From the NCBI GenBank assembly GCA_003990765.1, contig RBNJ01000006.1, forward strand, positions 47,794 through 67,793: DNA of 20,000 nucleotides, given 5' to 3'. Positions 1 to 20,000 of the stretch are shown here, piece after piece. This DNA is from Jimgerdemannia flammicorona. Lineage: Eukaryota. The translations under genes were made by a program, and so were the position numbers. Position 1 is the stretch's first letter; every line of letters starts with the position of its first letter. The notes under the pieces are model-generated. The model worked only from the letters and a program-made list of their open reading frames with translations. It had not been told where the DNA came from and ran no database searches.

Positions 1-2
1 AT

Positions 3-750
3 ATCAGCAGAAGAATCATTCGAGATGAAGATGAAGAACATGAGGAGGAACAAGTAGAAATACCTCTCTGAACTCCTTTACCTTTTGTTCCTGAGACAAA
101 TAAGTTGCCATCAGAAGATGAAGAAATAGAATAAGAAGAATGGGAACCTGCTGCTCCAAAGCCTAAGAAGAAGTACACTTTGAAGACCATGCCTAGAGAC
201 ATTTATAATAAAGTCTGGCAGAAGATTCAAGAAGCCAAGATGGAAGTCCCCCTCCTGCAGTTCTTACAATTGACACTAGCTGGGGTCCAAAACAAATTGC
301 TGAGAACCACCAGGTCTAGTACTGGCCAAGTTCCAATCCCACAGCAAGAACCAGCTTCCATCTCTGTCCAATCAGCTGAAAGATATATCAGCACCTATTT
401 ACATAGAGATATTGGAGGACAAAAAGCAAAAATCCTCATAGACATAGGAGCAGCTGTCTGTATCATTGCCAAACGATTCTTGGACACCCTCCAATGGCCC
501 ATTGATGGACCATCCAACCTCAGCATCATAGTAGCAGATGGAGCCCAAACTCAACCTCTTGGAGAAGTACAAAATATCACCATCTCTCTTGGACACATTC
601 AGTTCTCCATCCCCAAAGCTGTTGTCACTGAAGCTGTCACCTATGATATGATTCTTGGCACCAACTGGATGAAGGAAATGAATGCAGTTGTTGATATCAG
701 CCAACAAGTACTCAAGTTTGATTATCAAGGCAAGAAGTATAGGATTAAGG
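3..750 (+). pseudogene. Gag C-terminal/linker region and retropepsin-type aspartic protease
   Basis: Frame +3: ...KAKILIDIGAAVCII...IIVADG..TQPLG...YDMILGTNWM. Catalytic D-T-G-A appears as D-I-G-A at 441-452 (ACA>ATA transition). The frame continues upstream past the window edge with two stops. Confidence 0.9.
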
Positions 751-2060
751 TGACTAGCAATGAGCAATCAAAGAAGAAGAAAAAGGTCACTATTCAGAAA
801 GAATATACCAGCAGTGAGGAGTTTACTACAGAAGAGGAAGAAGAATCTGAAGATGGAAATGATCCCAGACTCAATCCCCAAATCAATCTGGTGGATGACA
901 GACCAGAAGATAATGTGTGGGCCAAGAACACTATCCCTATTACCATAGGAGCTATTGCAGGAGAAGCCAAAGGATGCCCTACATGCCTCAAGAGACACAA
1001 GTGTCCTGAGCACTCCTCCAAGATCATGGGAACAAGAAAATCGCCTGGCACAGCCTGCCCAGAATGCAGAAGGAAGAAGAAGAAATGCAGACATGTTTCA
1101 GAAACACCTGCAACCGAAGCTACAGAAGTACAAGCAATTTGGGGCCAAGAATCATCCAAGGAAGAAGAAACTTCTGACCAAGAAGTTCCTGAACAAGAAG
1201 CACCTGATGAAGAAGAGGTCCCTGAACTCATTCTCTGGGATGACCCTCACTGGACACCACCTGAAGACAATGACCCTTGGAATACAGAAGAAGGACCCAG
1301 TACAATCACCATTATTCCCAAGAAAGAAACTCACCAAGAAAAGGCTTTTCAGCTAGAAAGATGTCCACACCAAATGGTCTTCTACTCTTCCCAAGACTAC
1401 TGCTATCAGTGTCATCTGTTGGACCAATAAGAAAGACAGAGACCCCAGAGATCAGAACCCCCAACTACTCTTGCACAGTCCACCACCTTTCAAGAAGTCA
1501 CCACAAGGTTACAACATTGATTTAGGGGACAAGGCCTCTTCACCCAAATAGAAATATATCCCTTGTCTACCCTTCCCCTGACCTATGATCAAGATGGGTA
1601 TTGATTCCCAAGACAACAAGAGATAAATAGCCAGGAACATCATTTTCAGGCAATGGGATATTGCAACCATAGGAGACACCCTGACTGCCAAGACTGCAGA
1701 CATCAGAAGATTCACCTCAGTCATGATGTTGCAGTGCACACTTTGAAGAAAGGAGAAAACTGAAGCCAGATTCGAAAAAACCAGATTCAAAAAAGTCAGA
1801 CCAAGAAGCCCAGAAAAAGAATCCTTAAGATCTATGATTTGGGAGAAGACATTCTAGCTCTCATTAGACATATAACCCACCAAGGATAGGCAGAAGATAT
1901 CACCAACTTCATGGAAGCCCTTGACCCTATAGGAAGGAGGGGAATCAACTATCTCTGAGACCCCTCTACTGGAGCCAGATGGCCACACCTCAACCTTAGA
2001 GCTTGGAGGCTTTCTGCTAGTGGAGTCTCAGCCTTAGGAAAGCCTGAACTCAGCAAGGAT
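751..2060 (+). pseudogene. Long PR-to-dUTPase spacer of the polyprotein: acidic low-complexity tracts plus four Cys/His clusters
   Basis: Same frame (+3) as protease and dUTPase, with only isolated stops. Clusters: CPTCLKRHKCPEH (975-1013), CPECRRKKKKCRH (1056-1094), CPH..CYQCH (1362-1415), CNHRRHPDCQDCRH (1662-1703). Confidence 0.7.
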
Positions 2061-2459
2061 ATTGCCCAGTATGTTCTGCTGCACCCCAAGGCCAAACCCC
2101 CAACCAAAGTCCACCCAGAGGATATAGGATATGATCTTCGCAGCCTGGAGGATGAATCTATCAAGCCTGGAAAAACCTTCATGGTTAGAACTGGATTAGC
2201 CATACAGCCACCCCCAGAAGCTTATATTCAACTGACCTCAAGGTCTGGACTTGCCAGACAGGAGATAACTGTAGAAGAAGGAACCATTGACCCAGGATAT
2301 ACAGGCGAAATCAAGGTCAGCAGTGCAGAATGGCACTGAATCATTAGAGGACAGAAGATTGCTCAAGCAGTCTTCATGAAAGTCAAGACCCCACAGTTAC
2401 AGGAAGTCTCTGAACTAACTGAAGGAATAAGACAAGCCAAGGGATTTGGAAGTTCAGAC
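2061..2459 (+). pseudogene. dut: Trimeric-type dUTPase domain within the Gypsy polyprotein
   Basis: Manual translation of frame +3 (absent from the ORF track): QYVLLHPKAKPPTKVHPEDIGYDLRS...VRTGLAIQPP..YIQLTSRSGLA...GTIDPGYTGEIKV...RGQKIAQAVF...RQAKGFGSSD. All five dUTPase motifs are in order. A small compensating indel with one stop lies between motifs III and IV. Confidence 0.93.
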
Positions 2460-2879
2460 AGGAAAGAGGTACATCTCCTTCAAGTCAACCATCTTAAGAG
2501 GAATGTTCCCTAGCAAGTGTACCAGTAACCAGTCAGACTGCACAAGAATCTCATCCTGGAGCCCAGAGAACAAACTATCTTCGAAATCTTTGCACCACCC
2601 GACCCCAGAAACCTTTTCTTTGAAACCAAGGAAGATATCCCATATCTGGATATAGAGGGACACACATTCCCTGACAAAATGAACCCAGTACACTCCCGAG
2701 CAACCAACCAAAGTTGGGAGACCATCATCTTACTGAAAGGAACCATCATAGGATATCTGGTGCCCTTTCTCAACTGAACTCATAGGGAAGTTTATGAACT
2801 AAACCTATCAGGAAATAGTAAAAGGTCTCAGAAGAAAGGAAAGGCCCCTCTGCGACCCAGAAGATAGTGAAGCCTTCCA

Positions 2880-3717
2880 CCAACATTGGAGAAGAACTGA
2901 CACCTCAATAACAGCAACAACTAGTAGAACTTCTCAACAAATATCAAGATATCTTCACCACTGATTATGGCAACCTGCTATACAACCCATCATATCACCA
3001 CAGCATAAATACAGGAAGTGCAACACCCATCCAGCAGAAGCCCTTTAGAATACCTATCACTTGAAAACATTCAAAAAAGAGCACATTTAAGAACTCTTAG
3101 ACAATAGAGTCATCCGACCCTCCACTAGCCCCTGGGCCAGCCCTATACTTATTGTACCAAAGAAAGGAGGATGGAGACTCTCCAGATACTTCAGCAGTAT
3201 GGACCTCTTCACAGGATTCCATGAGATCCCCATGGACCCCAAGGACATTCAAAAGACAGCTTTCCTTGCTCTAGGAAAACTGTTTGAATACCTCCAAATG
3301 CCCTTTGGACTCTGCAATACACCCCCCATCTTTCAGAGGATGATAAATTCAGTCTATGTCTCCTTGATCCACTACTGCCTGATTATATATATGGACGATT
3401 CCAACATCTATTCAGCGAATTTCAAAGAATACCTGCACCACCTAGAGGAATTCTTCAAGCTCACCCGCAAGAATCACTTGAGATTGAATACAAAGAAATG
3501 CTACTTTGGGAAACAGAAACTCGAATTCCTGGGATTCATGGTTTCAAAAGAAGGAACTTATGCAGACCCAAAGAAAACCAAGAAGATCAACAATTGGCCA
3601 GTACCCAAGACTCCAAAGGAAATACTATCATTTCTGATGCTAGTATCCTACTACAGAAGGTTCCTCAAGGACTTTGCCCAAATCACTGCCCTGATCTGAA
3701 TCCTTCTCAAGAAAGGA
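2880..3717 (+). pseudogene. Reverse transcriptase domain (Ty3/Gypsy), disrupted
   Basis: LVELLNKYQDIF...PIQQKPFRIP (frameshift) IRPSTSPWASPILIVPKKGG...YFSSMDLFTGFHEI...QMPFGLCNTPPIFQR...IYMDD (3388-3399)...KKCYFG...FLGFMVS. Confidence 0.95.
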
Positions 3718-4190
3718 ATGCCATTTAAATGGACAGAATCACAGGAAAAAGCCTTCAGAGAACTCAAGAACCATATGACTACAGCACCAATCCTTGTACA
3801 CCCCAATCTACAGAAGCCATTCATCTTGTATATAAATGCTTCCAAAGATGGCCTAGGAGCAGTTCTAGCCCAAGAAGGACCTGACCAACAGCATCATGTG
3901 ATAGCTTATGCAAGCAGAGCTACCAATCAGCAGCAGGTGAACTATAGTAGCACCAAACTGGAATGTCTTGCAGTCATATGGGCAGTCATCCTGTTCAAGC
4001 ATTACCTCATCAGAAAAAGGTTCACCCTGATCACAGACCATACAGCCCTCAAATAGCTATTCAATTGCAAGAAACCTGCTGGAATCCTAGTCTGCTAGAT
4101 CCTTATCCTTCAGGATTACAAAATCACATTTATTCACAAAGCAGGAAAACCCACAACAATGTTGATGTACTTTCCCACCAGCCCCAATGA
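3718..4190 (+). pseudogene. RT connection and RNase H domain
   Basis: FKWT..QEKAF..LK...APIL.HP..KPFILYINASKDGLGAVLAQ...IAYASR...NYSSTKLECLAVIWAV..FKHYL...FTLITDHTALK, then HKAGK.HNNVDVLS after a frameshift. Catalytic TDAS is decayed to INAS. Confidence 0.93.
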
Positions 4191-4229
4191 ACCAGAAAAA
4201 GGGTGTCCTGAGGAACCACACCCTAAAAA

Positions 4230-5255
4230 AAGCTCAAGGAATAAGAAGATCTCATCTGACAAGAACATCAGAAAGCCCACTAAGGACAGACAAGCACAGA
4301 AGATAAGATTCAAAAACAATATCAACATTGGCCCTACCTCAGAACCCAAGTATAAGATATCATTCAAAAATGTGATGTCTGCCAGAAGTACCAAGGAAAG
4401 AAGAACTATCAAGTCTCTCTGCAACTGATTCCCCCATCTACTCACATCTTTCAAAGATGGGGAATAGATGTAATTGGACCTCTACCAGTTACACCAAGAA
4501 GAAACAAATATATCCTTATATTTGTAGAACATTTGACCAAGTGGCCTGAGGCTTTCCCAATAGAAATCACAGATGCCTTAACCATTGTAGGCCTCCTCTA
4601 TGGACTTACACTCAGATATAGACCCCCAGAAGAACTCATTTCTGACAAAGGCATAGAATTCATCAATAACATAATCATAAGTTATGTCTGAATTCACAAG
4701 ATCCACCTCAAAAGAATCACATCATACTACCCCCAGACCAATGGCATGACAGAGAGAATAAACCAGACCATCAAGAAAGGACTTGCCCAAGTCAATCCTA
4801 CTAATTGGGACCTCTGCTTACCTGAGATCCTATGGGAAATTTGGAACACCCCTACCATCTCTACTAAACAAAAGCCATTCAAAATGATGTTTGCTAAGAG
4901 AACCAGAACTGCTGACCATGAGAATCTTGAAGACCTCTTCAAAAAGACAGAACAGTTACATAATCAAGCCCAAGGACAGATTATCAAAGCCCAAGAAAGA
5001 CAAAAGAAGTACTATAATCAAAAACAGAAGGATCAGAAGATCAAGATTGGAGATCAAGTACTAGTTTGGAGAAGTATGATTGAAACAAATTTTGCTGCCA
5101 AACTGAAACCCAAATGGGAAGGACCTTATCTTGTATACAACATCAGAGGGACCAGCATCTATTTAAGAAGCATGAATGGATAAACCCTCAGAACACTAGT
5201 ACACATCAATTGCCTCAAGATATATCTTTTCCCACATCATGAATCAGAGAGTTGA
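4230..5255 (+). pseudogene. Integrase (HHCC zinc finger, catalytic core, GPY module); no chromodomain seen
   Basis: Frame +3: EHQKAH...HWPYL...KCDVCQ; RWGIDVIGPLP...VEHLTKWPEAFP...LISDKGIEF...YYPQTNGMTERINQTIK; KLKPKWEGPYLV...VHINCLKIY. Probable natural stop TGA at 5253-5255. Confidence 0.93.
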
Positions 5256-5754
5256 CAACTATCTTCAGACTCTTATCCTCAGCTCATTTCAATCACTACT
5301 GGTCCCCCTACCCTAATTCTGAGAAGTCAATGGGAATACTCTCCAAAAGATCCAGATTCATCAAGAGAATCTTGTCCTGGCCAGACAATTGCTACAGGTC
5401 CATCAACTTCAGACCCACTATGCAATTGGGAAATAATTGCAGAACCTTCTAGTCTCAGAACAAACATATATCAGAAATACCACAGAACTATCAAGGAGAG
5501 ATGTTACTGCCACTAACAGACTCTACACCCTTTACAAGTGAAACTCTGCAGCTCTGATGCAAGCACAATTCTCCTGATATGATATACAAGGAATGAACCT
5601 AGCCACCTATCTGAGCATTATCAATGCTGTTGAAATCTTATTCCCTGAAAAAGAAGAAGAACCCTTAGAATGGAGTGATCATGGTATAGATGACAAAGAT
5701 GATGGAACAGGTATTGATGCAGAAGATGCTTACCCATACTAGAATGATGATTAA
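5239..5754 (+). pseudogene. Extra ORF of unknown function between integrase and PPT (about 171 codons, several transition-type stops)
   Basis: ATG at 5239 overlaps the integrase end by 17 nt. Frame +1 reads MNQRVDNYLQTLIL...LARQLLQVHQLQTHYAIGK*LQ...RRDVTATNRLYTLYK*...YDIQGMNLATYLSIINAVEILFPEKEEEPLEWSDHGIDDKDD... to TAA 5752-5754, with no frameshift and an acidic tail. Confidence 0.65.
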
Positions 5755-5781
5755 AGGATAGTCTGAGGACAGACCATCCTT

Positions 5782-5794
5782 TAGTGGGGGCTGA
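5782..5794 (+). promoter_or_regulatory. Polypurine tract (plus-strand primer site) of the Gypsy element
   Basis: GAGGAC...TTTAGTGGGGGCTGA directly precedes TGTGAC, as is typical of Gypsy 3' ends. Confidence 0.8.
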
Positions 5795-6364
5795 TGTGAC
5801 AAACCAGGATGTACCACCTGAATTATACCTTAGCCAGATAACATGAACACACAACATAATAATCAGTAACCATTGCTGTGGAAACTGTATAAATAGCCAG
5901 ACTACCAGATAAGGTATATCTGTGCAGGACCTGTACACCTGTGCTGGACCTATATACTTATACTCGACCTGTACAACTTGTTATAGATAGCAAATCTATA
6001 GTTAGCCATATAGTAATCAGATAGCAACCAACTTGTATAAATTACCCCAGAGACAAGAGTGAATAAATCTCAGTTCAAAATACAAACCAAAGAAGTCTCT
6101 AAAGATTGAGCATTAGTCCCTTATTCCACTCCAGTCCACTTTCCGATACAAAGATTGATTGGTACACTTGCCAGACTAAGCCTGAAGATTTGCTGCCAAA
6201 AGTTCAAGGAAGAACTTCACTACTTTTTGAAGAATTCAAGTTTTTGCTGCCATTCTTACCACAAGCCAGTCTTTCTGATACAACTTCACAGTGGAGCCAG
6301 TCTATGATATAACCCCATGCAAATGAAGCCAGTCTTTGATGTAACTTGCCAAGAATCCTAGTTA

Positions 6365-6960
6365 ATTCCCAGTTGAAGCTGCCAATTCAGGAGAATCTAC
6401 ATCATCTGCCATTTCCAAGTTATCCACCATATTCCCAGTTGAAGCTGCCGATTCAGGAGAATCTGTGTCATCTGCCATTTCCAAGTTATCCACCATAGAG
6501 TACTCCCAAATGAGTCAAATCATTTCGAATCAAATTGAATTGAGGGTTAAATGAGTCAGGATTTTTCAATTCGAATCAATTCAAATCAAATCAAAAGTCA
6601 AATCAAATTGAGGGTCTGATTCAAACCCTAATTTTCAAAATGCAATAACTCAGCGTAAACTCTTCCAAATCTAATGTACCTTAGCTTGTTAGAATCACAT
6701 TAATGCATTGAATCTAACAAGCTAAAATACGTTAAATTTAGATGAGTATTTGTCGAGTTATTACATTTTGAAAATTAAGGTTCAAATCGAACTTTGAATC
6801 AAATTGGACCTTTGACTCGATTCAAATCGAATCAAATTGGACCCTTGATTCGATTCGTTGGGAGCACTACCGCCATATTCCCAGTTGAAGCCGCCATTTT
6901 CAAGAAGTCCACCAATTCAGGAGAATTCACATCATCTGCCATTTTCAAGTTATCTATGTT
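6365..6960. repeat. 66-bp tandem repeat inside the LTR (two near-perfect copies plus a diverged third), split by the MITE
   Basis: ATTCCCAGTTGAAGCTGCC-ATTCAGGAGAATCT...TCATCTGCCATTTCCAAGTTATCCACCAT starts at 6365 and 6431; the third copy resumes at 6877. Confidence 0.9.
6498..6869. mobile_element. Non-autonomous DNA transposon (MITE), hAT-like, 372 bp
   Basis: 8-bp TSD CCACCATA (6490-6497) / CCGCCATA (6870-6877). Imperfect TIRs: GAGTACTCCCAAATGAGTCAAATCA versus reverse complement of the right end TAGTGCTCCCAACGAATCGAATCA. Subterminal GAATC/GATTC repeats and a long internal palindrome at ~6625-6785. Confidence 0.85.
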
Positions 6961-7575
6961 CCCAGAAGAACCCATGCTGCCCGAGCTATTATTCCCAGAA
7001 GAATCCTATTTACACCATCTGAGTAGTATTCCCAATTGAAGTTGAATCTACAACATCTGAGTTAGTTGTCCTCAGTGAGCCCGAGTTATTAAGTTATCTG
7101 CTACTAGTACAATTCTCAGTGAACCCACACCCAAATCAAGTTATCTGCCAAATTATCAGAATGATCCAAATAAGGAATCCACTCATGCTATACAAGATCA
7201 TCATGCAGAAATTGCATAAGGAGAACTGCTAAATTGCCAGACTGTCATATACAGAAATTGTTGCACTATACAGAAATCACCTGCTACTCAAGAAGAAAAC
7301 TACTCATACTACATACAAATTCAGCCATTCCCAGTTGACCTAAGAAGAAAACCTATTCACAAATTACTGCTATACCCAGAGAACCATCCCAATTAGGAAA
7401 TCAACACACAAATCGCTTGCAGATATCCAGCTTTGACTATTATACCACTAAACACCAAGGACCTTAGGAATCTTAGAACATTTTGTTGCTTTTTGACAAA
7501 GTAACTGGGGGCTCAAGCCAAACTACATCAACCCCTAACCTTGTAATTTGCCTCCATTGAGCCAGACACATTACA

Positions 7576-8456
7576 ATATATATACTATATACTTCTTATA
7601 AGTAATATATGTTCAAACAATTCTCAAATATTTCAATATGAATAAATATAAGTCTGTCAGCACTCTTATAGATACTTTCATGAAGTTAAGAAAGCCTGAT
7701 ACTATTTCTGAAGATGACAATAATATATAAGCCAAAAATGATATCAAAGATATACTATATCAGTAACTAATTAGTTCTCTTATATATATATCTCATACTA
7801 GGAATAAGACCCAACATAATGTATACTATAAATAAGATAGCACAATATTCCTCCTACTATGATAATTTATATTAGAGTACCATTAAGAGAATATTTAGAT
7901 ATCTTAAGGATATGACATACTATATACTTATATTAAATAATAGTAATGGTGAGAGAAATAATAAGAAGAATGACATCTAACTATCTAGTATATATGATAC
8001 AGATTGGGCAGGTGATCTCAATGACTACTAATCTATAACCAGATATCTATTTCATATTAGCAACCAAGAGTCTGTCATCTTATGATAAATATATATATAA
8101 TTATCTAAAGAAATATTATTAATATAGACAAAATATCAGGCATTATCATTGGTAATAAAAGAAGCTATTTAGCTCTATTAAAAGAACTTGGATTCACTCA
8201 AAAACAGAGCACTATGCTATACCAAGATAATTAGTCTATAATTATACTTACTAAAAATCTGATATATTATAGTAGAATAAAATATATCAATATACAGCAT
8301 TATTTCATTTATAAATATATAGAAAACAGTGTTATATACTTGAAATATATCTCAATAGAGTACATAGTCACTGATTCACTTACAAAAGTCCTTCTAAAAC
8401 TAAAGTTCAAGCTATGTATTAACAAAATGGATCTTATGAACAATATGCCAGTTTAG
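7576..8456 (+). mobile_element. Highly degenerate Ty1/Copia remnant (RT C-terminus and RNase H)
   Basis: Decayed Copia motifs in order: YVQTILKYFNM..KSVSTL; YQ*LISSL..LGIRPNIMYTINKIAQY (YQSLVGSL..TRPDI); KRIFRYLK; YDTDWAGD; LYQDN*SII.L.KN...RIKYINIQHYFI (RTKHIDI.YHF); VTDSLTKVL (ADILTK.L). Confidence 0.88.
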
Positions 8457-8578
8457 TAGTTAATTATGAGATACTTTTCAGGCCCTAAAAAGTCTCTCTT
8501 ACTGTATTTACATTATTTTTACATTATTTATATCCATATCTTACATTCTCATTACATCTCTTATCTATGAGTGGATTT

Positions 8579-8889
8579 TGTAGATATTTTAGATATTATA
8601 GAATACTTTTCAATCTGCAAAAATTCCTTAGATATAGGATTTTATAATAATACTTTGGATTATATATAGTTTTAGTTTTTGCATATATTATATTACTTTT
8701 TACTCTAGTTTGTATTCCCTTTTCTTTTTTTGGATTTATATATCTCATTGAGTAGGAGTGATGGAATATATAGTAACTCAATATATCAAAATATAACTTA
8801 TACTATTTTATTAGATTTATGTCATTCATCAGTAATATGTGAAATATGTGACCTATGTAACTTCAATAAAGTATCTCTCTTTTATAACA
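8579..8889 (+). repeat. Possible 3' LTR of the Copia remnant
   Basis: Decayed purine tract ATGAGTGGA (~8567-8575), then TGTAGA... ending AATAAA (8865-8870)...TTATAACA. It sits between the Copia RNase H end and the next Gypsy remnant. Boundaries are inferred. Confidence 0.35.
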
Positions 8890-8899
8890 TAATTGATTT

Positions 8900-9368
8900 G
8901 ATAGTACTAAGTTAAGAATAAAGTTACTTTACTATAAGACAGGACTAATATTACTATTAAGATAGATAAGTCTGTAAATAAGACTCAGATTGTAATTATA
9001 TCTATAATATAATTTAAGAAGATACTTAAGAAAGTAATATATATTTTTATTACTATTATCTAACTTAAGAAACAAAACAAGAAGCTATTAATCAATAAAA
9101 GTATCAAGTTGCTACTAGATAAATTTAAGAATATCTTTTCAGATAAGCTATCTGATCTACTACTTATATAAGAAGTAGATTATAAAATAGAATTGATCTC
9201 AGAAACTGAACCCTTCAAAAAATATTTATACTATATATTATCTCTCAAGATAGAAGCAGTCAAGAAAGAATTAGAAAACCTACTTGTCTGAGGAGTTATT
9301 CAACCCATCAAGTTATCCTTTGGCTCACTATTTCTTTTTGTCAAAAAAAAAGAATAGAACTCTGAGAG
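8900..9368 (+). mobile_element. Second, highly degenerate Ty3/Gypsy remnant (PR-RT linker and RT N-terminus; chromovirus-like signature)
   Basis: IISII*FKKILKK...IKLLLDKFKNIFSDKLSDLLLI*EVDYKIELISETEP...VKKELENLLV*GVIQPIKLSFGSLFLFVKKK.NRTLR matches decayed LL..F.DVF...LPP.R.VDH.IEL...PS.SPFGAPVLFVKKKDGTLR. It differs from the first element's RT. Confidence 0.8.
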
Positions 9369-9910
9369 ATATAGTAAGATAAAGAGTGTCAGGTCAAACT
9401 TGAAGTCAGCTATATCTCAGGAACAAATTTAGTAAAAGTAAATAAATGCCATTGAGATTTAAATTGTGGATGATAACAAAGAGCCCAATCTCAGCAAAGA
9501 GAATTTCAGCAGAAGAGGGAAAGTATTTCAGCAAAGAATATCTCGGGAGAAGAAACACGGCAAACGGAAATTTGGCAAGGGAAGGAAATCTCTGGAAACA
9601 GAAACTTGACGGGGGTGGGAAACATTGGCAAACGAAAATTTGACGGGAGAGGAAAATCTCACTGATGGAGACAAACGAAGAACTGGACAGAGCAATTTGC
9701 GTTTTGTATGATGAGAGCGAAAGCAAAATCCTTCAAAACTATAGAATATTCTAGGTTTCAACCGGATGGCACACGACATAGAAAAGATCGTGAATAACCA
9801 CCAAGATTGTGTGCGCACACAGGTCACTCGTTTGGGTCGAACCACGACGTCATCACACGAGAGTCGGCACTTGATCGTGTGGCTTGGCACACGTGATCTT
9901 TTACCCTACA

Positions 9911-10135
9911 TGTAAGCCCATTATGAACGTTCTGACGCAGTCCCTTCTTTTCCTTTAAGCATTACGTAGCACTCGCTGGCAACATATATAAATATCCTCG
10001 AGGAAAGAATAAAGCTCAGATATATTATAACGCTAGTTCTGCGTCAAGAATCGTTTCTGTCACATCGCTTATTCTACACGTGTGCGCTCATTCCAACCTT
10101 TGACGCATGTGGCGGAGCGAGGATAAACGCTTACA
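9911..10135 (+). repeat. Candidate short LTR-like sequence (225 bp)
   Basis: Perfect 7-bp terminal inverted repeat TGTAAGC...GCTTACA enclosing TATATAAATA (9985-9994) and AATAAA (10008-10013). No flanking TSD (CTACA vs GAACT). Confidence 0.3.
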
Positions 10136-12654
10136 GAACTAGTATTATGGACTTTCAGCGAGTAGGAAGTGAATGCACTTGGCACGAGACGTCCTATCTT
10201 TCACCTTCCACCTGTTTAGTGTTCGTATGACAACCACTGCCGATTTCATAAACCATGACAGCCACGTGAGTCTCCGTTTTGTAACGTGGTAAATGACGCC
10301 ACAAAGACACGCGCAATAAACGTCACATAGATGAGTCACGAAATGACGTCACGAAACACGATTAAGACGTCACGCAATAAATCACTGTCAAAGAACGCGG
10401 GTTCATATATAATTATTTTGTGATAATGGTACAACTAATACGACGCGTGTTCGAACATGTACAATAATAGATACCGAACTTCTGCCTTACATCACCTATA
10501 ACTATTATTTTTGTGGCAAACAATTCTCGAAATCGTGTACGCGTTTTGATGACGTTCTGTTAATCGTAATTGTATGTCAAATTTTGGAAACGTTCACTTT
10601 TCAGCAAGATCTTTACCACATTCAACTATTCTCATGCAATCATGGTAGTGGCAAACTTTCAATCCAAACCGTCTTATAAGTGTCTTGCACAGGTTTTCAC
10701 CGCCGCACTCTTTGAATTCAAGCTCCGAATTGCACGCCACTAAAGTGAGGTGCGCAACCATTTTGACAGTCAGCCACACGCGTCTTTTTCGCTTTAATGG
10801 CGCGCCCCGCACGGGCCATTGTGGCTGGGCCGCAGCCTTGCGGAACCGACTTCACTCTAAACCGGTTTCGATACCCTTAGTGGGGCCCAGATCAGGGCTC
10901 TCCTAAATAGAGCGGCGTAACGCTTTGGGATGTATATGCCTTCTGCGGACGGAGTGCTGATGTATGGGCTCACCGATTCGCCAAGATAGTGTTTCTCGGG
11001 AATCCGGGATCGCGGCATCTGGAACAGCGCATAATTCGCGCAGTTACTGGGACCGAGAGGCGCGAATCCAAACGGGCTGCATGTGTTCGTAACCGGGAAC
11101 AGTTTCCGGCCTCGGAACGCACATTGGCCCATTACGGCATTCCCAGCCAATCCAGCCCAAATCCTACCCTTCCTTAGAGGTCATGAGTGTGAAACCAAGC
11201 TCCGCATACTGTCCACAAGACCTGGCATTGGAAGGCTCATGGACATTCCCTGGAGGTCACAAGCACGACACCGAGGGTGGCATTTTCAGAGCCTAACCGT
11301 CGAGAACAGGTGCTCGGAAACACATGAGCGTGTGATCGCTTCCAAGCCCCGGATCTGCCCCTTTCTTTGAGGTCATACCAAGCAAGCTGCGCATCCCCGG
11401 AACCCCATCCTCGAGGGCAGGTGCCCTTCTCGAAATGTACATGACATCATGGTGGCTTTCCCGGCTCCCAATTCAACCCTTCCATTGAAGTCATAGGCAC
11501 GTACTCAATGCCGCAGCTCTGCGTGACAAATAGCCCTCCGGTATTTTTGGGGAGCGCCGAGGAGCTCCGTATGCAAACCTGCCGGATCATCCGTCCATTT
11601 CTTTAATCCGATTCGTTCGGTTGAAAATGGATTGGATTGCCTAACCGAAGTAAAGTTCGGTTCGTTTTGGAGGGGCAGCGGAAGCCCGGAACGGAGACCG
11701 TAAATAGGAACATTATATGCTTGTAAATCAAAATTTGGAAAGGAAACAGTAGAATTATACAATACTGTTGTCATTTGAAACAATCGTGTATTTTGTATGC
11801 CGGTTTCATTTAAATCGTGTAGCACCTTGTTGTTCTTATGTCATGCCTCGGCGTTGTCTCAGGTTTCATGCCGACCCATTCCTGTGATTCCCGCCTAACG
11901 TAAAGAATGCGCAGCAAAACGATGATGTGTGCACTATGGATCGGTGGGGATATTTGGTTGTAGTCGCCACGAGTTTCTGGGGGTTAATGTAGGCTCGAGG
12001 TGTGAAGAAAGTAAAGCAAATTTATTTAATTTTCGTCGAATCTTGCCTAGTATTCACATTTATTATAAGCGATTTGCAATTGCCGTGGTGATTTGTTATA
12101 GAAAATAGGACGCTTGGCACAATCCGAGTAAAAAACGGCAAAATGTGCCGACAAATAACAGCTGATGAAACCAATAGTTTTGGTGTTCGTTTACGTTTTA
12201 TTTCTCACGATCGACTGCCTCGGATGTGATATTACCGTTCCGCCGGGAAATGCAAGGAAACTGTTTCCCTCACAACAATATCCGTCGGCTTGGTCCCTCG
12301 GACCAATTTGGTACCGAATTGATTAAATCGATTTGAAAAGGCCGTGGAATAATAACAAGCTTTGAAATACGCTCCTTCAACTTGAACAATGTTTATACCA
12401 AATAAATGAAAATATTAAAATTCCTTCGTACAATACACGGTATACGTTTTCTATCATTCGCCTCGCGCGATGGTCACGCGCACCGCTGAAAAATATCCTA
12501 ATATGTTATTCGCAAGCGAAAGCTCATCTCGGTACCGCCCTTCCCTATCCTTGGAATATGTTTGATGCTAAAGTAATATTCCTGTAGCACTTCAAAACTG
12601 TTGCTAATGACTCCGCAATCACCCGAGATTTTGGAGATGGAAGAAATTTTCAAA

Positions 12655-12736
12655 CGTATAAAATGACGGACAATTAGGTGTCTTCCTCGGAAGAACTTGT
12701 ACCGTATAAAATGGCGGGCAATTAGGTGTTTCCCTC
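12655..12736. repeat. Direct tandem duplication, 34-bp core with 48-bp period
   Basis: CGTATAAAATGACGGACAATTAGGTGTCTTCCTC (12655-12688) versus CGTATAAAATGGCGGGCAATTAGGTGTTTCCCTC (12703-12736). Confidence 0.8.
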
Positions 12737-15700
12737 TTGCTTCATCATCTCTCGCTCCAACATGCATCACGTCACTAAAGCGCAGAGATTTATCTTGTAG
12801 GCTCTTCGGAAGCAAATTCTAGTCACAATCTGCCGGCAATCCCTGTTCAAGTTTCGAAATAGATGTAATTATCTGACTTGAGTGATCCCCATTTCGCCAT
12901 CAGACCGTCAATTGAACAAGCCTCAACGTGGACCACAGGAGACGTCTCAACACTTGACCATCTAGTCACTCTCAGCCACGCCGCGAGTATCAAGGTCATT
13001 TGGGCTTTAAAGGTACCCGCGAAGAATTGGACGCATAATGTAGATAGTTGTCAGCAGTGAACTCCATTCGCAAATCCAATTTTGACGAGATTGAATCTAT
13101 TGGGAGGTAAGTTGGGAATATCGATAAATAACCTGATGCCATTTTGTACTATTGTTGATAGAGCTGCGTAGTATTTCCTTTTCCAAGATGCTCATAGAAA
13201 TAAAATTTCCTTCGCCGTTGAATTTTAAATTTTCCACTAGAACAGATTTCCTCTCGTAGCCGTCGGAACGTTTACAGCGTTCGTTCGTGAGGACACTACT
13301 CACGACCAGTACTCATTCAAAAATACTTTAGCCGTCATTCATGTGGCTGTGGCCGAATTGATTGCTCCTACTGAGGATTTTTGTCTCCTGCCTCCCCGTA
13401 ATAAAATGAGGATTTAAAATCGACGTAACTGCATTGTGAACCCTATTTGATGATTCTACAAAATATATTATCTGTTAAAAATTTGATTATTCAATCATTG
13501 AGAAAACCACCCCTTTGAAGCCAATGCAGTCGAATCCCTCTCTTTCACCCAATTCGTATGCTCATTCAAACCGACTTTCCGAGAATGTGTCCTCATGGAG
13601 TTGTGATGCAAATATATTTTTCTCATAAAGATCGGGTCGGGTCGGGTTGAGACACTCTAATTTTGTGTTAAAATCTGATCACAGGACACTAAAAACGAGT
13701 TTCGCCCACTTATAACTCGATCGTGCGGCCGACAGTATATCTTTGGACATATTCCAAGTCGTCACCCCACCTAAACGTTTTTTTCCCAACGTACTGGCCT
13801 TTCCAATTTATCAACTTTGGATCGTCGTAGGGGATACAATTTTTGGAGTACGGATATACAAGAAGGTATAGAAAAATAGCGCACCCACAGAACGGTACCC
13901 GCCTTCGGGGTTCGGGAAGATCTCTTAGATTGCAAATTCTTCCTCGCCTGCTCATCCCCGCTCTCTTTGAAAACCAGGCTCTGCTTTCCATGACTGAAGC
14001 CGCTGTCGTAAAAACCCGAGGTTTAAAACGATATCGGATCCCCCAGTTTTCAGCTTACATCATAATCCCATAAGAACACATCTAGATTTTTGGTATTTTG
14101 TATTTCTCTCAGGTCGTCGGTTCGAATTAGCTTACGAAGGCCCCCAAATGTTGAAAATTCGTTGAGCAACCAAGATGACGACCCATACACTAACGCTTAT
14201 TTAGCTCAATGAATTGGGAACCACCCAAGACCAAGATGGATGAGAAAGTGTTGGATCGCGTCAATAGGACTAAGTTGCGGAACACTACTCGTTCTCTTGT
14301 TTGACTTACCTTTGATCGTTAAGATTTTACAAGAGGATTGGTATTTTGAAGGAGTGTCATTATCCGGAATTTTTGAGACAAGCTCAAAAATCAAGATTTT
14401 TGGGGAGAAGGTAAATGAAGTTTAGTCAATGGAAAAAAAATACTTCAGCTCCTATATAATATTCTTCGACCTGTCGAGAGACAAGTTCTTCAATCGCAAA
14501 ATATTGGGAGGGAAGATAGAAAAGCGCCTCAAAAAAATAGGCAGTGAATTCCATGAAACTCACTTGATTTCCAGCTTGTTTCGGCTGAAAATTTTCGTCA
14601 AGTACCTTCTTCGATCTTTAATATAAAAATAATACTAAAGTCTTTTCCTGCCTATTTCGATTTTCGTTTAATAACTGTCCGCACCGAGATTGGAAAAGAC
14701 TCTTCATAAACAACACGAACTTTTGCGCGTTCGAGTAATGTTTCTTTTGATCTAAAATTTTGTGCTTTAAAGAAAGCGAACAAGATAGAGCTTCGCAAAG
14801 TTGTATCTGTAGAAAATCACACACGTTGAGATGTCGATCGCACTATTTTAAAGCACACGCTTAAGTATCGATTTTTCCCGTTACGTTATAATAAACACGC
14901 ACGTCTCGACCTGTATGGGCCTGTTGATACTTCAAGACCGCTTGGGTCATAATGGCATAAAGCTTAAATTTCGGGCGAGAGAAATTTTTGGCCTGGTTGT
15001 GTCTATGTATGGTTGCACAATTTTTACCTTTAGCCATTGGAACAGGCAGAAAAATGGAAGGGACGGCGAAAGAAGGCATTATATGACAAGGGCTCTTCCA
15101 CAGGCGCGAGTTAACGCCCTGAAATATTGCCATTATGAATATCCACTCCTTCTATGCTGCTTCACATACCGATTTCTCTGGCGTTGCGTCTTCGAACCTT
15201 TTAGTCATCTCCGGCCTAGCGGGCCCTTCGAAATTCAAGTAATTAGTTGGTGTGACCGACGGTTGCACATGACGATGAACGTCAATGTAATATATTCGAT
15301 TTACCCAAAACAGATGTCCCCATAAACGTGCAAAGTCAATCTCCCAAACGACGGCATCCGCACCACACGTGGTGGTCTTGTGTAAAAATTTATTCTACTC
15401 TCAGGAATAGCGGGCCGCATGGCTGATGTAATCAGCACGGAAAATGTCATCGGCACGATGTCCCCGAATCGTACTTATCCATGTGGGAAAACGTGTTCTT
15501 GGCACGATAGAATTGTTTAATTTTGTTGGTATGGTTAAGGCTCGCATGTTATCGATGTCGACGAAAAGCAATACTAACGTTATATGGAACACAACGACCT
15601 GCCAAATTTCTGGTCAATAGCATTCTCAGGCTTGGTGACTACATCATGAACATATACCATACGGCCTTTGATTGCCAATAGAGGTTACTCCGCACTAGCC

Positions 15701-16566
15701 AATTACCCAACAAGGAACCCCATAGTTGTCACGTTTGCAGGATCGAACTGTTAATTTTATTTTATTTTATTTCGGAACCTTCCTCGTTTCTCCCATGCGT
15801 TTGCGATAATATATTCGAAATTTCGGCGTGCCCGAAAACCTAGTCCCCTAAGCTAAGGTGAGACGTGTCCAAAATAGGAGCACGTGAAATAATGACATAT
15901 CACACGAGACACCATAGATTTTCGGGCGGAAGTGCGGAAATCGAAATCTGGAATCAAAAGTAGATTGAAGGCTATCCGTGGCTGACGGCGGTTCTCCGAT
16001 TTGCAGGACCAAGGAAATATTTCAATAAAATAGCATAAATATATATTAAAAAAAGAGTGCGTTGATATCGAAATCGAGCATCTTGTTGAGAAAGATTGTG
16101 TTCCGGATCATTCGATCATGCACAGCCTTGATTCAAGAACAATATACGATTCGTAAAAATCTATTTTTAGGCCGTATTTTTTACATTTATCAAACGAAAT
16201 AGAAATGGAAAAATACAAAGGGGAAGCAAAACGAATGGAAATAAATTAAGAAAAGGTTGTCATAAGTGTTGTAAGGGATAATTATTGTAAACTCAAATCA
16301 TCATCAGGCTTAAAGTCCGTCATATTGTGAATCGAACGAGAAAAATTCAAAAACAATGGTGGGCATACACTGCAAAGTGCTAAAAAACACTTGTCAAGGG
16401 AGTACTGTTGTAATGGGTGAAATATAGAAAGGAATTGTTGCGAGAGAACACGGAACTGATTAGGGATGGGGTTGCGAGATAACACTGAAATTATTAGGAA
16501 CGGGTTTGCGACAGAACACGTATATAAATGATTGGGAATGGGGTGATAATTTCTTGGGAATTTTCT

Positions 16567-17490
16567 TCACATCAAAATCCCTTCAAATAAGGGATCCGCA
16601 GCTATTTGATCCAACACCCGATCGATGTGGTGTAACATTTGGAGGTTCGAGGACTGGTCCTGCACGAGTGCGCCGTATAGTAACCAATCGACATCGCCAG
16701 TCCATAACGGTGCGGTGGCTGGTACGACAAACTCATCTAAAACGCGATCGAACCAGCGTTTGTTGTCGAAGTTTGCCCGGACTCTGAGTTGTGCGCAAGT
16801 GTTGCGGAGCGAGAGGGCGTCGCGGGCCGATAACTGCTCAAATATCATGGCATGAAGCTCTTTAGGGAGACCATTTATGTTTTTGGGAACAACGGATGGA
16901 CCATTTGTGTTGATGGCCAAGTTGTAGAGTTTAGGGAGGTGAGGGAGGTGAAGGGGGGCACAACGGAGGTAGGAGCTGTCGGGGTGTTCGGGTAAATCCG
17001 CCATGCCGTAATAAGTGGTGGGGTGCCGACTGTTGTCGTTGACAGAGAGGAAGAAGGCGAAATATAACTTGGCAATAACGCGTGAATAAAACTCATTATT
17101 CATTATATCAGATCCCAGGTCGATAGTGTTCCCGTTGTACGAAAGACATCGCTCAAGGAGGCGACGGAAGCAGTTGGTGTGGAGCATGACACCAAACGGG
17201 AAACTTTCGACGTAGCGCGATGGGGCGACGTTGTAAATGGAATACGTGGGCGAAGGTGAATGAGCGGACTGAGATGGCCTATCCGGATAGCGGACGAAGC
17301 CTTGAAGGTCAAGTCTTCCGCCTGGCGGAGATATGCAGGCCGCCAAGGGATCATCGACGAAATGAGTAAGCACACGGACGTCCGTACAGTCGATGGTGTC
17401 AGAAGGCGTGCTACTATGAGTGCCTTGAACCTGGGCAACCGGCCACATGCCGCAGACGACACAGAATACAACGGTAATAGTGCTTGCCAT
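16567..17490 (-). CDS. F-box domain protein, 307 aa (N-terminal CxxC...HxxC region, F-box in the C-terminal third)
   Basis: Uninterrupted ORF; first ATG at 17490 (the track start at 17649 is TTG). F-box-like INGLPKELHAMIFEQLSARDALSLRNTCAQLR..W. FCVVCG, LHTNC and VDWLLY align with the neighbouring paralog. Confidence 0.85.
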   Translation of the reverse strand: MASTITVVFCVVCGMWPVAQVQGTHSSTPSDTIDCTDVRVLTHFVDDPLAACISPPGGRLDLQGFVRYPDRPSQSAHSPSPTYSIYNVAPSRYVESFPFGVMLHTNCFRRLLERCLSYNGNTIDLGSDIMNNEFYSRVIAKLYFAFFLSVNDNSRHPTTYYGMADLPEHPDSSYLRCAPLHLPHLPKLYNLAINTNGPSVVPKNINGLPKELHAMIFEQLSARDALSLRNTCAQLRVRANFDNKRWFDRVLDEFVVPATAPLWTGDVDWLLYGALVQDQSSNLQMLHHIDRVLDQIAADPLFEGILM

Positions 17491-19191
17491 CGAGGTCGCC
17501 GGTTGGCGGAAGGACGAGTTATCATTGCTTCTCCAGGCGGTATTTATTCTTTTCCAAATGGCGGCGGTGCTCCTTTGTGTCAGCACTTTGTTTTCTTGCC
17601 AAGAATCGATCACATTGCTGCGGTTGGCCCGAAACCTTCGGTGGCACAAACGAAGAAGGATGACTTTCGACTCTTCTTTTTCTTCTTATATCTTTGTAGG
17701 CAACAAGCTGGGACCTCCAATTATGGTGTATCATCGAGCCCAGGCTATGCCCCTCTATGCCTCCAAAAGTGCGCCGAAATTGTTGGATAATTGCAATAAT
17801 TCACCTATTACATAGCCGTGACAGGGTTGCTTTCATGGTGGCGATCTGAAAATGACCAGTTACATTCGATCTATGATATGCTTTCGTTCTCTCTCCGATA
17901 TTTATCGGCTTACGGCAGGCGGATTCGTAATTTTTTTTTTTTTTTTTGTTTTTTCCCATCCCCCCCCGCCGTTTTCTATTCTTGACCCCCAGTTCCCGGA
18001 CTTCGTGGCTCATAGGGTGGGCAGTGAACCCTGCCCCCTGTTGCTAACAGAACGATTTTTGACAGGCCGAAAATTTTAAAATAAGCTCAAGTCATCTCAC
18101 GTCAGCAAACCAGTTTACATTTTATTTCGCTAGGGGTCACCGTATGCTTCGCAGTCTGCCAAAGCGTACTTCATGCTGCGGATCATTTGAACGATCGCAC
18201 GATAACTCGTCTTTGACTTTTGCCATTTCCGCCGAATAATACATCTCGCCGTTCCGCAGATATGAAAGCAACGGGGAATATTTGTTTGGCACATCGTAAT
18301 GTGCATCACTTGTATTTTTGCTTCTTTACAAAGGCACCACAAAAAAAAGTCAAATGCTTGTCTTGAGTTAGGTATCGACATCTGGTTGCATAGGTAGGTA
18401 GCTTGGAGGGTACATTTGAACAATATTAAAGTCATCAGCGTTTATGGCCATCGATGTCTATATCGGCACTCCCTTTTTCTGTCCAATATAAATACTGCCC
18501 AAATCGATAGGCTTCAAGTGCGAAAAAGAACGAACCCCGGCCATCACGGTTATGTAACTGTAGATGCCCAACTGAAGTATTGTAAGCGGTAGGCCCTCAA
18601 GGTCAGCGATGGCATGCCTCGCTACCCTGGAGGATCTGCTCAACGCTTAGTCAATGTGTCGGGCACCCTTACCTTGAATTTACGGTTACTGCGGCTCGAA
18701 TTGTTCAAAGGGGGCTGATAACCATTTCGACCAAAAAGGCACTGATCTCAAAATGCCAGTCCTGCTACCTAAGATCACGGAGGAAGCACCAAAAACAAAG
18801 GCCGATTGGCTCGGAGATTGGGTGCTTCAGCACAAAACCTTGTCCTTGGTGGCCTTTTCCACATATCGCAGTGGCTTTCCTTAAAAAATTTATTTTTGGT
18901 TTCTTCTAGAAATCAACGTCATAGTCATATACATTGAATCAATAGCATATAGAAGTCGAAAACAAAGGACATAGTGCATAGGTAGTAAAGTAATACATGA
19001 AAATAATGAGTCATAATGATGGCATCCAATACTTATTCGAGCGAAATTTTTAGAGATCCGACCGAATTGAATATCTAAAGCTAAATATGGGAACGCTACG
19101 CTACTAACAAAAATGTTTAGCAGCCAGAAGGTGACCAAACGGCTACTAGTGTTCAACGAAATTTCCCTCCAAAACGTCTCGCGTCCGCCAG

Positions 19192-19983
19192 CTACACCCT
19201 CAGCAATCTCTGGAACGCTGGAATTGCTGAAAGCTGGTCCAACATCGAGTTAATATATGAACGTTTCTGTAATCTTTCCGGACGATTGTCAAGGACACAA
19301 TAGCAAAGCCAATCAACTGTCTCGTCCCAACCCGGAGACGGGGTCGAGACTACCGTGTGTTCTGCTGCCTCTCTATGCCAGATCCGATTACTCAGGCTGA
19401 GCTTGGCTAGGCTTTCGAGCCTGGCACATGATCGACGAAGCGCGAGAGCGTCTTGGGGGGGGCACATATGTAGAATTAAAACCAGCAATTCAGGGGGAAG
19501 CTCGAGGCGGCCTAACGAGCTCGTGGCACGAAAGGGGGACTCCGGTGATTGGCATAGCTTCGGAAAGCGGAGGGGTGGAAAGGACAGCCACGGGAACCCG
19601 AAGCAGGCGTCTAGGTTGTTCAAATAGGTGGGCGGAAGGCCTTGACGGTTTACCGTAGCAGCAAACGCCTCGTACAGCGCAACGGTTATCTCCCGAGCGA
19701 TAACGGGGTTCCCATGAAATTCGGAAGCAACGTTGACGGTTCTGCCGTTATGGACGTACTGGCATCGGTCCAGCACACACTCCAAGCACCAAATGTGTGT
19801 CACGATGCCCTCGTGGTGCCTGTTGGGAGCGGTTTCGTACGCTGCGTAGTGCCGGGGGAGGGCATGCGACGACGTTGGGGACGATGGAGGGGCCATATTG
19901 TAAATCCGCCCATAGCGATTCAGCAAGACTTTGGGCAGGTCTCCCAGTAAAAGACAACATATGGGGCAAAAGGTGTCAGTCAT
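19192..19983 (-). CDS. F-box domain protein, 263 aa, paralog of 16567-17490
   Basis: Uninterrupted ORF with ATG in A-rich context (AAAAGCATG). F-box-like LELPPELLVLILHMCPPQDALALRRSCARL..W. FCPICC, THIWC, LDRC..NG.T, LY.AF..VN, VDWLCY and LDQL.A.P.F are shared with the paralog. Confidence 0.85.
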   Translation of the reverse strand: MTDTFCPICCLLLGDLPKVLLNRYGRIYNMAPPSSPTSSHALPRHYAAYETAPNRHHEGIVTHIWCLECVLDRCQYVHNGRTVNVASEFHGNPVIAREITVALYEAFAATVNRQGLPPTYLNNLDACFGFPWLSFPPLRFPKLCQSPESPFRATSSLGRLELPPELLVLILHMCPPQDALALRRSCARLESLAKLSLSNRIWHREAAEHTVVSTPSPGWDETVDWLCYCVLDNRPERLQKRSYINSMLDQLSAIPAFQRLLRV

Positions 19984-20000
19984 GCTTTTTTTCTTTTTTT

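Follow-up and report, generated by a model that had tools for sequence, protein, structure and literature searches.

To our knowledge, extra open reading frames (ORFs) behind pol are common in long terminal repeat (LTR) retrotransposons, have rarely been proven to be selected genes, and almost none of them has a known role. Here we describe one such frame, called ORF3, which lies behind the integrase of a decayed Ty3/gypsy-type LTR retrotransposon of Jimgerdemannia flammicorona (assembly GCA_003990765.1, contig RBNJ01000006.1, positions 47,794 to 67,793 of the forward strand). This whole stretch of 20,000 nucleotides (nt) is referred to as the window, and positions are counted from its first letter. 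We consider it probable that window 5239-5754 represents the dead copy of a third, real gene in a Ty3/gypsy family with the order protease (PR), dUTPase, reverse transcriptase (RT), ribonuclease H (RNaseH) and integrase (IN), that the gene is expressed by termination and restart of translation (stop-restart), and that its product has an adaptor or regulator role.

Precedents in fungal LTR elements include the 'add. ORF' (Novikova et al. 2010, PMC2864245) and an additional ORF of Botrytis BcGypsy1/Boty named brtn (bioRxiv 10.1101/2021.04.13.439636). Like such 3' additional ORFs (aORFs), ORF3 is in sense orientation, fills the space between integrase and 3' LTR, is kept in diverged copies and has no recognisable domain, and as in that positional class it stands at the same place in all four DNA copies. 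It differs from them in that its constraint was measured and in that its start overlaps the integrase stop as ATGA; the likeness to brtn and to plant aORFs is one of description only. To the 3' additional ORFs of LTR retrotransposons, a kind already known, ORF3 adds a new family.

Among ORFs in the env position, CERV of Cer1, a Gypsy element of C. elegans, is by analogy the closest precedent as to function. CERV is not an Env protein and is needed for the export of genomic RNA, and the authors of that work raise the possibility that the same holds for other 3' ORFs (PMC10309623). ORF3 resembles it in being non-Env and lineage-restricted, in occupying the env position of a Ty3/gypsy element and in evolving fast relative to pol. 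On the other hand, CERV has 517 residues and comes from a spliced mRNA that joins an N-terminal part of gag, whereas ORF3 has about 170 residues and its own AUG at the integrase stop. A CERV-like function of ORF3 would be a guess by analogy.

For stop-restart at AUGA or UAAUG there are established cases in caliciviruses, in influenza B (segment 7), in the fungal viruses CHV1 and HvV190S and in the non-LTR element SART1, so that precedents exist both in fungal hosts and in a retrotransposon (PMC10275272, PMC2699510). ORF3 shares with these cassettes a stop and a start that overlap, out of frame, after a long upstream ORF. They have a mapped RNA element, either upstream (a TURBS, for termination upstream ribosome-binding site, or a pseudoknot) or downstream, whereas none was detected at the integrase/ORF3 junction. 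The open-access literature searched, which is not proof of absence, yielded no LTR retrotransposon using stop-restart and no description of this protein family, of its constraint or of repeated ATGA coupling in an LTR retrotransposon.

The third frame and its relatives

The features of ORF3 in the window are the following.

5239..5754, + strand: ORF3, a pseudogene in the window copy, 171 codons and TAA (from the frame, the homologs and the ratio of nonsynonymous to synonymous substitution rates, dN/dS)
5239..5242, + strand: ATGA, integrase stop and ORF3 start in relatives (from the alignment with the related loci L001-L003)
5623..5751, + strand: conserved acidic tail of ORF3, codons 129-171 (from column conservation)

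An earlier sequence-only reading had pointed to an ATG 17 nt before the pol stop, opening a frame of about 171 codons without frameshift. Both were found again: the ATG occupies 5239-5241 and the pol-frame TGA 5253-5255, and the frame ends with the TAA at 5752-5754 and has no frameshift relative to intact homologs. It is broken by six premature stops, at codons 26 (TAA), 28 (TGA), 66 (TAA), 101 (TGA), 113 (TGA) and 168 (TAG), where the closest homolog proteins have Q, R, Q, R, W and W. Each of them is one C>T or G>A step away from a sense codon, as judged from these amino acids except at position 5434, where three contigs of the soil-metagenome run X1 have C and the window has T; the stops are in this way of the same transition kind as those of pol, as had been noted. 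The TAG at codon 168 is shared with L001. Of the ten sequences extending to the C-terminus, eight have W there, and the TAA at 5752-5754 is therefore the true end of ORF3.

Taken alone the window frame is unremarkable and Pfam is empty, and so the case rests on relatives. The read-through translation of the frame, with X at the stops, matched five proteins at E<=1e-3 (E 7e-49 to 9e-12) in a full HMMER scan of 1.84 billion representatives, all of them singletons from metagenome contigs, and a profile search gave 16 homolog proteins on separate metagenome contigs. Four of the homologs are full-length and uninterrupted, namely P0019 (171 aa), P0020 (172 aa), P0021 (169 aa) and P0023 (183 aa, including a spurious N-terminal extension). 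The C-terminal stop is shared by all eight intact sequences (these four and four C-terminal fragments), which end in ...DDGTGIDAEDAY(P/A)(Y/H)W(D/N)D(D/N). The HMMER and profile searches and Pfam revealed no sequence relation of ORF3 to any named protein.

A pattern scan of JGI metagenome contigs gave 505 pattern matches, of which three were confirmed as related loci (L001, L002 and L003); in viral contigs none of the 262 pattern matches was confirmed. ORF3 directly follows a closely related integrase in each of the three contigs, and thus in four of four DNA copies when the window is included. It has 144 open codons in L001, followed by a TGA after which the tail continues in frame, three stops in L002, and 83 open codons up to the contig end in L003, which has ATA instead of ATG. 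The four full-length proteins of 169-183 aa and the long open frame of L001 indicate that the gene is intact in other copies, and its homologs keep the position behind integrase; on these two points the sequence-only reading could have failed and did not.

Substitutions were compared by the Nei-Gojobori method among the four DNA copies (window and L001-L003; six pairs), with dS near saturation. In the ORF3 frame dN/dS was 0.08-0.19 in the five pairs where dS was computable, which shows the purifying selection that the sequence-only reading had expected; with the reading shifted to +1 and +2, the same columns gave 0.66-2.2. The C-terminus of integrase, used as a positive control, behaved in the same manner (0.12-0.15 in frame, 1.0-1.7 off frame). 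Over the six pairs the differences per site at codon positions 1, 2 and 3 were 0.22-0.34, 0.18-0.20 and 0.42-0.58, and all internal indels of ORF3 relative to L001-L003 measure 3, 6, 12 or 15 nt. The acidic tail taken alone, compared between window and L001 over 39 codons, has 13, 4 and 16 differences at positions 1, 2 and 3 (dN 0.22, dS 1.72). No long antisense ORF crosses the ORF3 region in L001.

ORF3 evolves faster than integrase (dN 0.21-0.31 versus 0.06-0.09). In L001 and L002 the integrase proteins are 98% identical, and their ORF3 sequences differ with dN 0.21 and dS 1.1. L002 (1216-1569) has a mosaic structure: it is L001-like over integrase and about the first 55 ORF3 codons, with 75-100% nucleotide identity, whereas from window position ~5405 it is nearer to the window lineage (up to 72-73% over 5450-5555, against 47-57% to L001), the switch lying near window 5400-5450. 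Near-identical integrases with diverged ORF3 sequences, together with this mosaic, indicate that ORF3 lineages recombined onto the same pol.

In working relatives the ORF3 protein has 169-172 residues. Its N-terminus is rich in Leu and Pro and conserved as M(T/N)QRID..LQTLILSSFQ.LP.PLP.F, and a conserved helix reads HQENL..A.RLLQ.HQLQA.Y.IG. Over residues 1-128 the protein has a mildly basic character and a high content of Gln and Leu, with an isoelectric point of 9.2-9.9 for residues 33-128. The tail carries the motifs LFPE...LEWSD...DDGTGIDAEDAY.YW.DD, with the C-terminus DDGTGIDAEDAYxYW(D/N)DD. The acidic character of this tail, which the sequence-only reading had described, amounts to 16-19 D/E and no K/R in the last ~43 residues. 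AlphaFold models are all-helical, with four to five helices, at low confidence (predicted local distance difference test, pLDDT, 58.7 with 9 rows and 48.0 with 20 rows).

Some observations speak against a functional third gene, and two other explanations of the frame have to be weighed with them. The stop count does not stand out from chance: the frame has seven stops, where 5000 shuffles gave 10.6 on average (P 0.16), and when the best of three frames is taken the shuffle P is 0.44, the other + frames having 8 and 11 stops. The related copies are all partly decayed, with stops in ORF3 or integrase in L001 and L002 and pol frame breaks in L003. In run X1 the depth over the ORF3 bins is 13.5-20.4, against 128-437 in neighbouring pol and LTR bins (at least 80% likeness); this may mean either that the copies are too diverged to match or that many are without ORF3, and it is the chief point against a presence of ORF3 in every copy. 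Nucleotide identity between ORF3 lineages is 45-67% in parts, and no contig joint skipping the whole of ORF3 was seen among the X1 matches listed. A non-coding spacer between pol and the polypurine tract, open by chance, would agree with a stop count within the shuffle range and with the lack of a family match, but it is refuted by the codon-position pattern, the contrast between in-frame and off-frame dN/dS, the indels in multiples of three and the four intact homologs, and we regard it as extremely improbable. That the frame is a decayed or minimal Env, the remnant of a fusion glycoprotein, is just as hard to believe. Its charged start followed by a Leu-rich stretch would suit such an origin; against it stand the length of about 170 aa, the acidic tail, the all-helical model, the lack of an Env family match and the lack of a membrane anchor, the maximum Kyte-Doolittle mean over 19 residues being 0.94-1.36 in three intact homologs. 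The sequence-only reading, which had seen no membrane segment and had held the protein not to be a typical Env, agrees with these values, with the length of 169-172 aa and with the absence of a Pfam match.

We are thus nearly certain that ORF3 is a real gene, selected as a protein. The accessory protein gene in the env position that had been proposed is borne out by homologs, by in-frame constraint and by the same position behind integrase. A frame hidden from ORF callers in the window copy is in this way shown to be a conserved protein-coding gene with defined start, end and motifs, of which intact natural versions exist (P0019, P0020 and P0021). The alignment profile of ORF3 lets annotators recognise the family in soil eukaryote data.

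Junctions along pol and the expression of ORF3

At the integrase/ORF3 junction L001 and L002 read CCATGA in phase, so that the TGA closes integrase and the ATG opens ORF3. The window keeps the ATGA; a 1-nt deletion about 4 bases upstream moves its pol stop 14 nt further, to 5253-5255, and the 17-nt overlap is for this reason specific to the window copy. L003 has CCATAA, and the protein relative P0023 has Met at this place; this fits a single G>A change that would have turned TGA into TAA and ATG into ATA together in L003.

The same overlap is found one junction earlier. ATGA joins RNaseH and integrase at window 4187-4190, L003 2791-2794 and L001 ~727-730, the overlap reading CAATGAACC in three of the four copies and CAATAAACC in L002. 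The in-frame stop of RT-RNaseH is present in all four (TGA at 4188-4190 of the window, in L001 and in L003; TAA in L002) and closes the ORF after the motif VDVLSRMTQ. The ATG (4187-4189) opens the integrase in the -1 frame, MNQRKGVP..., and L002 has ATA where the others have ATG. A search limited to proteins of 963-3065 aa gave only integrase relatives of 23-31% identity, whereas the integrase of the family is a separate ORF of 354 aa: this standalone integrase, P0030, with 19 member sequences, is intact and shares 99% identity with the L003 ORF. Moreover, 93 of 101 integrase matches of at least 380 aa start with M-N/D/E at one conserved position, and in 11 aligned standalone integrases the C-terminus lies 3-20 residues past the motif HRNRLKKY. 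Judging from these sequences, integrase seems to have an ORF to itself in a whole clade.

The dUTPase/RT junction is of another kind. It is an overlap of about 20 codons with a -1 step (window 2810-2870, L003 1330-1385), in which neither an ATG nor an obvious slippery heptamer was found. The pol of this family is a series of successive ORFs, each in the -1 frame (PR-dUTPase, RT-RNaseH and integrase), followed by ORF3.

At the RNaseH/integrase AUGA a GC-rich hairpin of about 10 bp, GCGGGAAGGA...UCUUUCCCGC, ends about 9 nt upstream. It was seen only in L003 (2744-2782) and L001 (~679-717), where the 150-nt windows have z of -2.08 and -2.06 (equalled by 7 and 8 of 200 shuffles); at this junction z is -1.03 in the decayed copy of the window. 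We also looked for a TURBS-like UGGGA. The sole one upstream of ORF3 falls within the conserved KWEGPY codons, at a distance of about 120 nt, and it was not counted.

Stop-restart may well be the main route of ORF3 expression, a judgement that we hold in about even balance. It is favoured because this mechanism is established for AUGA/UAAUG in viruses and in SART1. Ribosomes that finish integrase at the UGA would restart on the overlapping AUG, so that a little ORF3 protein would be made in step with integrase, and RT-RNaseH and integrase would be linked by the same AUGA device. The translational coupling to pol that the sequence-only reading had raised as a possibility would take this form, and its support is anatomical, the ATGA overlap. 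If this is true, it changes how integrase reaches the particles in this clade. Among sequencing runs sharing words with the window, one is listed, of soil-metagenome DNA and with 8% of the words, and no RNA run is listed.

Several results count against such a restart. L003 has ATA and P0024 has I in place of the ORF3 ATG or Met. The Met starts of the homologs are mostly an artefact of gene calling, and the unbiased frequency of ATG or Met is two of three N-extended proteins and three of four DNA copies. Around the integrase/ORF3 AUGA the minimum free energy of the RNA is not unusual (z -0.97, -0.02, -0.08 and +1.75 for the four copies in 150-nt windows), in a folding procedure that is blind to pseudoknots and with four sequences, which give no covariation. 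Known eukaryotic stop-restart systems need an upstream element (PMC10275272, PMC2699510).

The lack of a detected restart-promoting RNA structure at the integrase/ORF3 junction would suit another explanation, in which ORF3 is a real gene with an mRNA to itself, spliced or subgenomic, as is the case for retroviral env, and the ATGA reflects tight gene packing; an internal promoter is conceivable as well. Retroviral genes in the env position and CERV of Cer1 are made from spliced mRNAs (PMC10309623), and a purine stands at -3 of the ORF3 ATG in all three lineages. A 4-nt overlap that is kept across diverged lineages and recurs at the RNaseH/integrase junction is less easily reconciled with it, and reading the copies by eye gave no YAG acceptor just upstream of the ATG, the donor region lying outside the window; we see it as possible, if rather doubtful. 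It might also be imagined that ORF3 is a C-terminal extension of integrase, made by -1 ribosomal frameshifting and placed where chromoviruses have their chromodomain. ORF3 does follow integrase in the -1 frame, with its start precisely at the integrase end, the element has no chromodomain match, and frameshifting is probably used at the dUTPase/RT junction, since this is a -1 overlap without ATG. Nevertheless no X XXY YYZ slippery heptamer precedes the overlap (CCACCATGA, CTACCATGA or GCCATAA), the overlap zone has only 4 nt, three of the four DNA copies have their ATG precisely at the overlap, and a search over proteins of every length gave no ORF3 match longer than 183 aa, all of which makes such an extension highly unlikely.

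Possible role of the ORF3 protein

Searches for a known function were negative throughout and lend no direct support to any role of ORF3. With the read-through and 20 homologs, Pfam gave a best E of 0.06-0.36, for single members and with no Env family, and in NCBIfam and PHROGs 0 families were found. The best E against PDB by sequence profile was 0.17, Protein Atlas gave no usable match, and Foldseek returned no match at E<=1e-3 in PDB or BFVD. The wide VIA-align comparison reached a best Z of 7.3, for generic helical hairpins and BAR-like chains, which is within the noise of helical models.

Acidic tails bearing Trp serve as docking motifs in activation domains, in Arp2/3 activators and in histone binders. 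By analogy with these we tentatively place ORF3 in a class of non-enzymatic, non-membrane adaptors or regulators, an assignment that we regard as rather doubtful. The regulatory, anti-silencing or nucleic-acid-binding roles suggested by the sequence-only reading are likewise guesses. Its acidic Trp/Tyr tail would dock onto a partner of the host or of the element. The role of ORF3 could resemble that of the accessory proteins of complex retroelements, that is, of a factor for RNA export or expression such as CERV of Cer1; alternatively, it might be a cofactor of chromatin or of integrase in an element without chromodomain. The Leu-rich stretch at the N-terminus presumably resembles a nuclear export signal.

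We are tempted to suggest, as an unlikely but attractive extension, that the element is a polycistron read by repeated AUGA stop-restart (RT-RNaseH, integrase and ORF3), with ORF3 as its own trans-acting factor. By analogy, ORF3 could then be a transactivator of reinitiation or expression, to be compared with TAV of caulimoviruses, or an exporter of unspliced RNA of the CERV or Rev type, and host machinery would dock at its acidic Trp tail. If this were true, integrase would be free and not fused to Gag, and ORF3 would be the first accessory regulator to be defined for an LTR retrotransposon of fungi.

The element, its decay and its surroundings

The window begins inside the element, of which it holds the 3' three quarters (1 to ~6300, + strand); no 5' LTR, direct repeat pair or second copy of the element was found in the window. 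The parts other than ORF3 are listed below.

3..2870, + strand: first pol ORF, 5'-truncated and decayed, with aspartic protease, long Cys-bearing acidic linker and dUTPase (frame mod3=0)
2810..4190 (start approximate), + strand: RT-RNaseH ORF, ancestrally -1 relative to the first ORF (from Pfam and alignment)
4187..5255, + strand: integrase ORF, decayed, with in-frame stops (Integrase_H2C2 E 8e-8, and rve)
5755..5792, + strand: short purine-rich spacer, putative polypurine tract region (from reading the sequence)
5793 (TG) to ~6300 (end approximate), + strand: inferred 3' LTR (from the TG start and the X1 contig depth)

Pfam matches follow the order PR-RT-RNaseH-IN along window 3-5255, across two frames. 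The read-through of frame mod3=0, with X at stops, contains 36 stops. It matches the zinc and core domains of integrase, gag-asp_proteas (aa 136-224, E 3e-8) and, between protease and RT, dUTPase (aa 698-818, window 2094-2456, E 2.7e-19). RVT_1 (E 1.4e-21) and RT_RNaseH_2 (E 1.9e-34) are both in frame mod3=1. In L003 the first ORF ends at the position that matches window 2868-2870. A correction to the sequence-only reading is that pol itself is not free of frameshifts: RT-RNaseH is in another frame, and compared with its relatives the window copy has lost 1, 1, 11 and 1 nt near 3052, 4147, 4235 and 5235.

Fungal Gypsy elements bearing a dUTPase are known from Tuber (Tmt1), Postia (PosPlaTy3-5) and Phanerochaete (PMC2864245, PMC6431247), and the window element resembles them in having the dUTPase between protease and RT. 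Tmt1 is reported with a chromodomain (PMC12581995); in contrast, the window element is without a chromodomain match and its integrase is a separate ORF. No chromodomain was matched at E<=0.01 on the pol read-through or at E<=1 on the ORF3 homologs. The Pfam accession PF00385, which we take to be that of the chromodomain, is listed for the integrase match P0003. The nearest named relatives of the integrase come from Rhizophagus and Entrophospora (Glomeromycota), with 36-37% identity.

The linker between protease and dUTPase (window ~675-2090, aa 225-697) contains the Cys/His clusters CPTCLKRHKCPEH, CPECRRKKKKCRH and CPHQ...CYQCH. It also has an acidic Trp patch, ELILWDDPHW...DPW, a loose echo of the ORF3 tail. 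In a BLASTP comparison of ORF3 with the pol read-through of its own element, this patch was the only match (E 3.2, not significant).

The window copy is inactivated by C>T/G>A transitions, like the rest of the element. Counting as private those changes in which the window differs from at least two agreeing relatives, C>T changes number 65 and G>A changes 50 (115 together), and the reverse changes 10 for T>C and 25 for A>G (35 together), with no dinucleotide preference. Run X1, which holds 2175 short contigs 80-99% like the element, differs from the window by 518 transitions and 54 transversions. The observed/expected CpG ratio is 0.06 in the element (1-5800) versus 1.05-1.23 in the flanking host part (9500-20000). 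Classical repeat-induced point mutation (RIP) was considered as the cause of the stops and rejected, as its indices were not reached (TpA/ApT 0.65, (CpA+TpG)/(ApC+GpT) 1.62) and C>T changes have no dinucleotide preference.

From the end of the ORF3 frame to the TG of the presumed 3' LTR there are 38 nt. The X1 contig depth is 128-437 over 5751-6250, then 50, and 4.6 further on. Past the presumed LTR a 66-nt tandem repeat occupies 6365-6497 (2 copies, 94%), and two diverged partial copies follow at 6877-6960; the 273 nt between those repeats (6567-6839) match their own reverse complement at 74%. An AT-rich block at 7500-9500, with 24-26% GC and an observed/expected CpG ratio of 0.0, separates the element from the host-like part.

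The rest of the window is host-like and includes F-box or F-box-like ORFs, with weak matches, at 16567-17649 and 19192-19998, both on the - strand. The former resembles clusters of Ascomycota by language-model features, with a high score, and is to be taken as a lead only.

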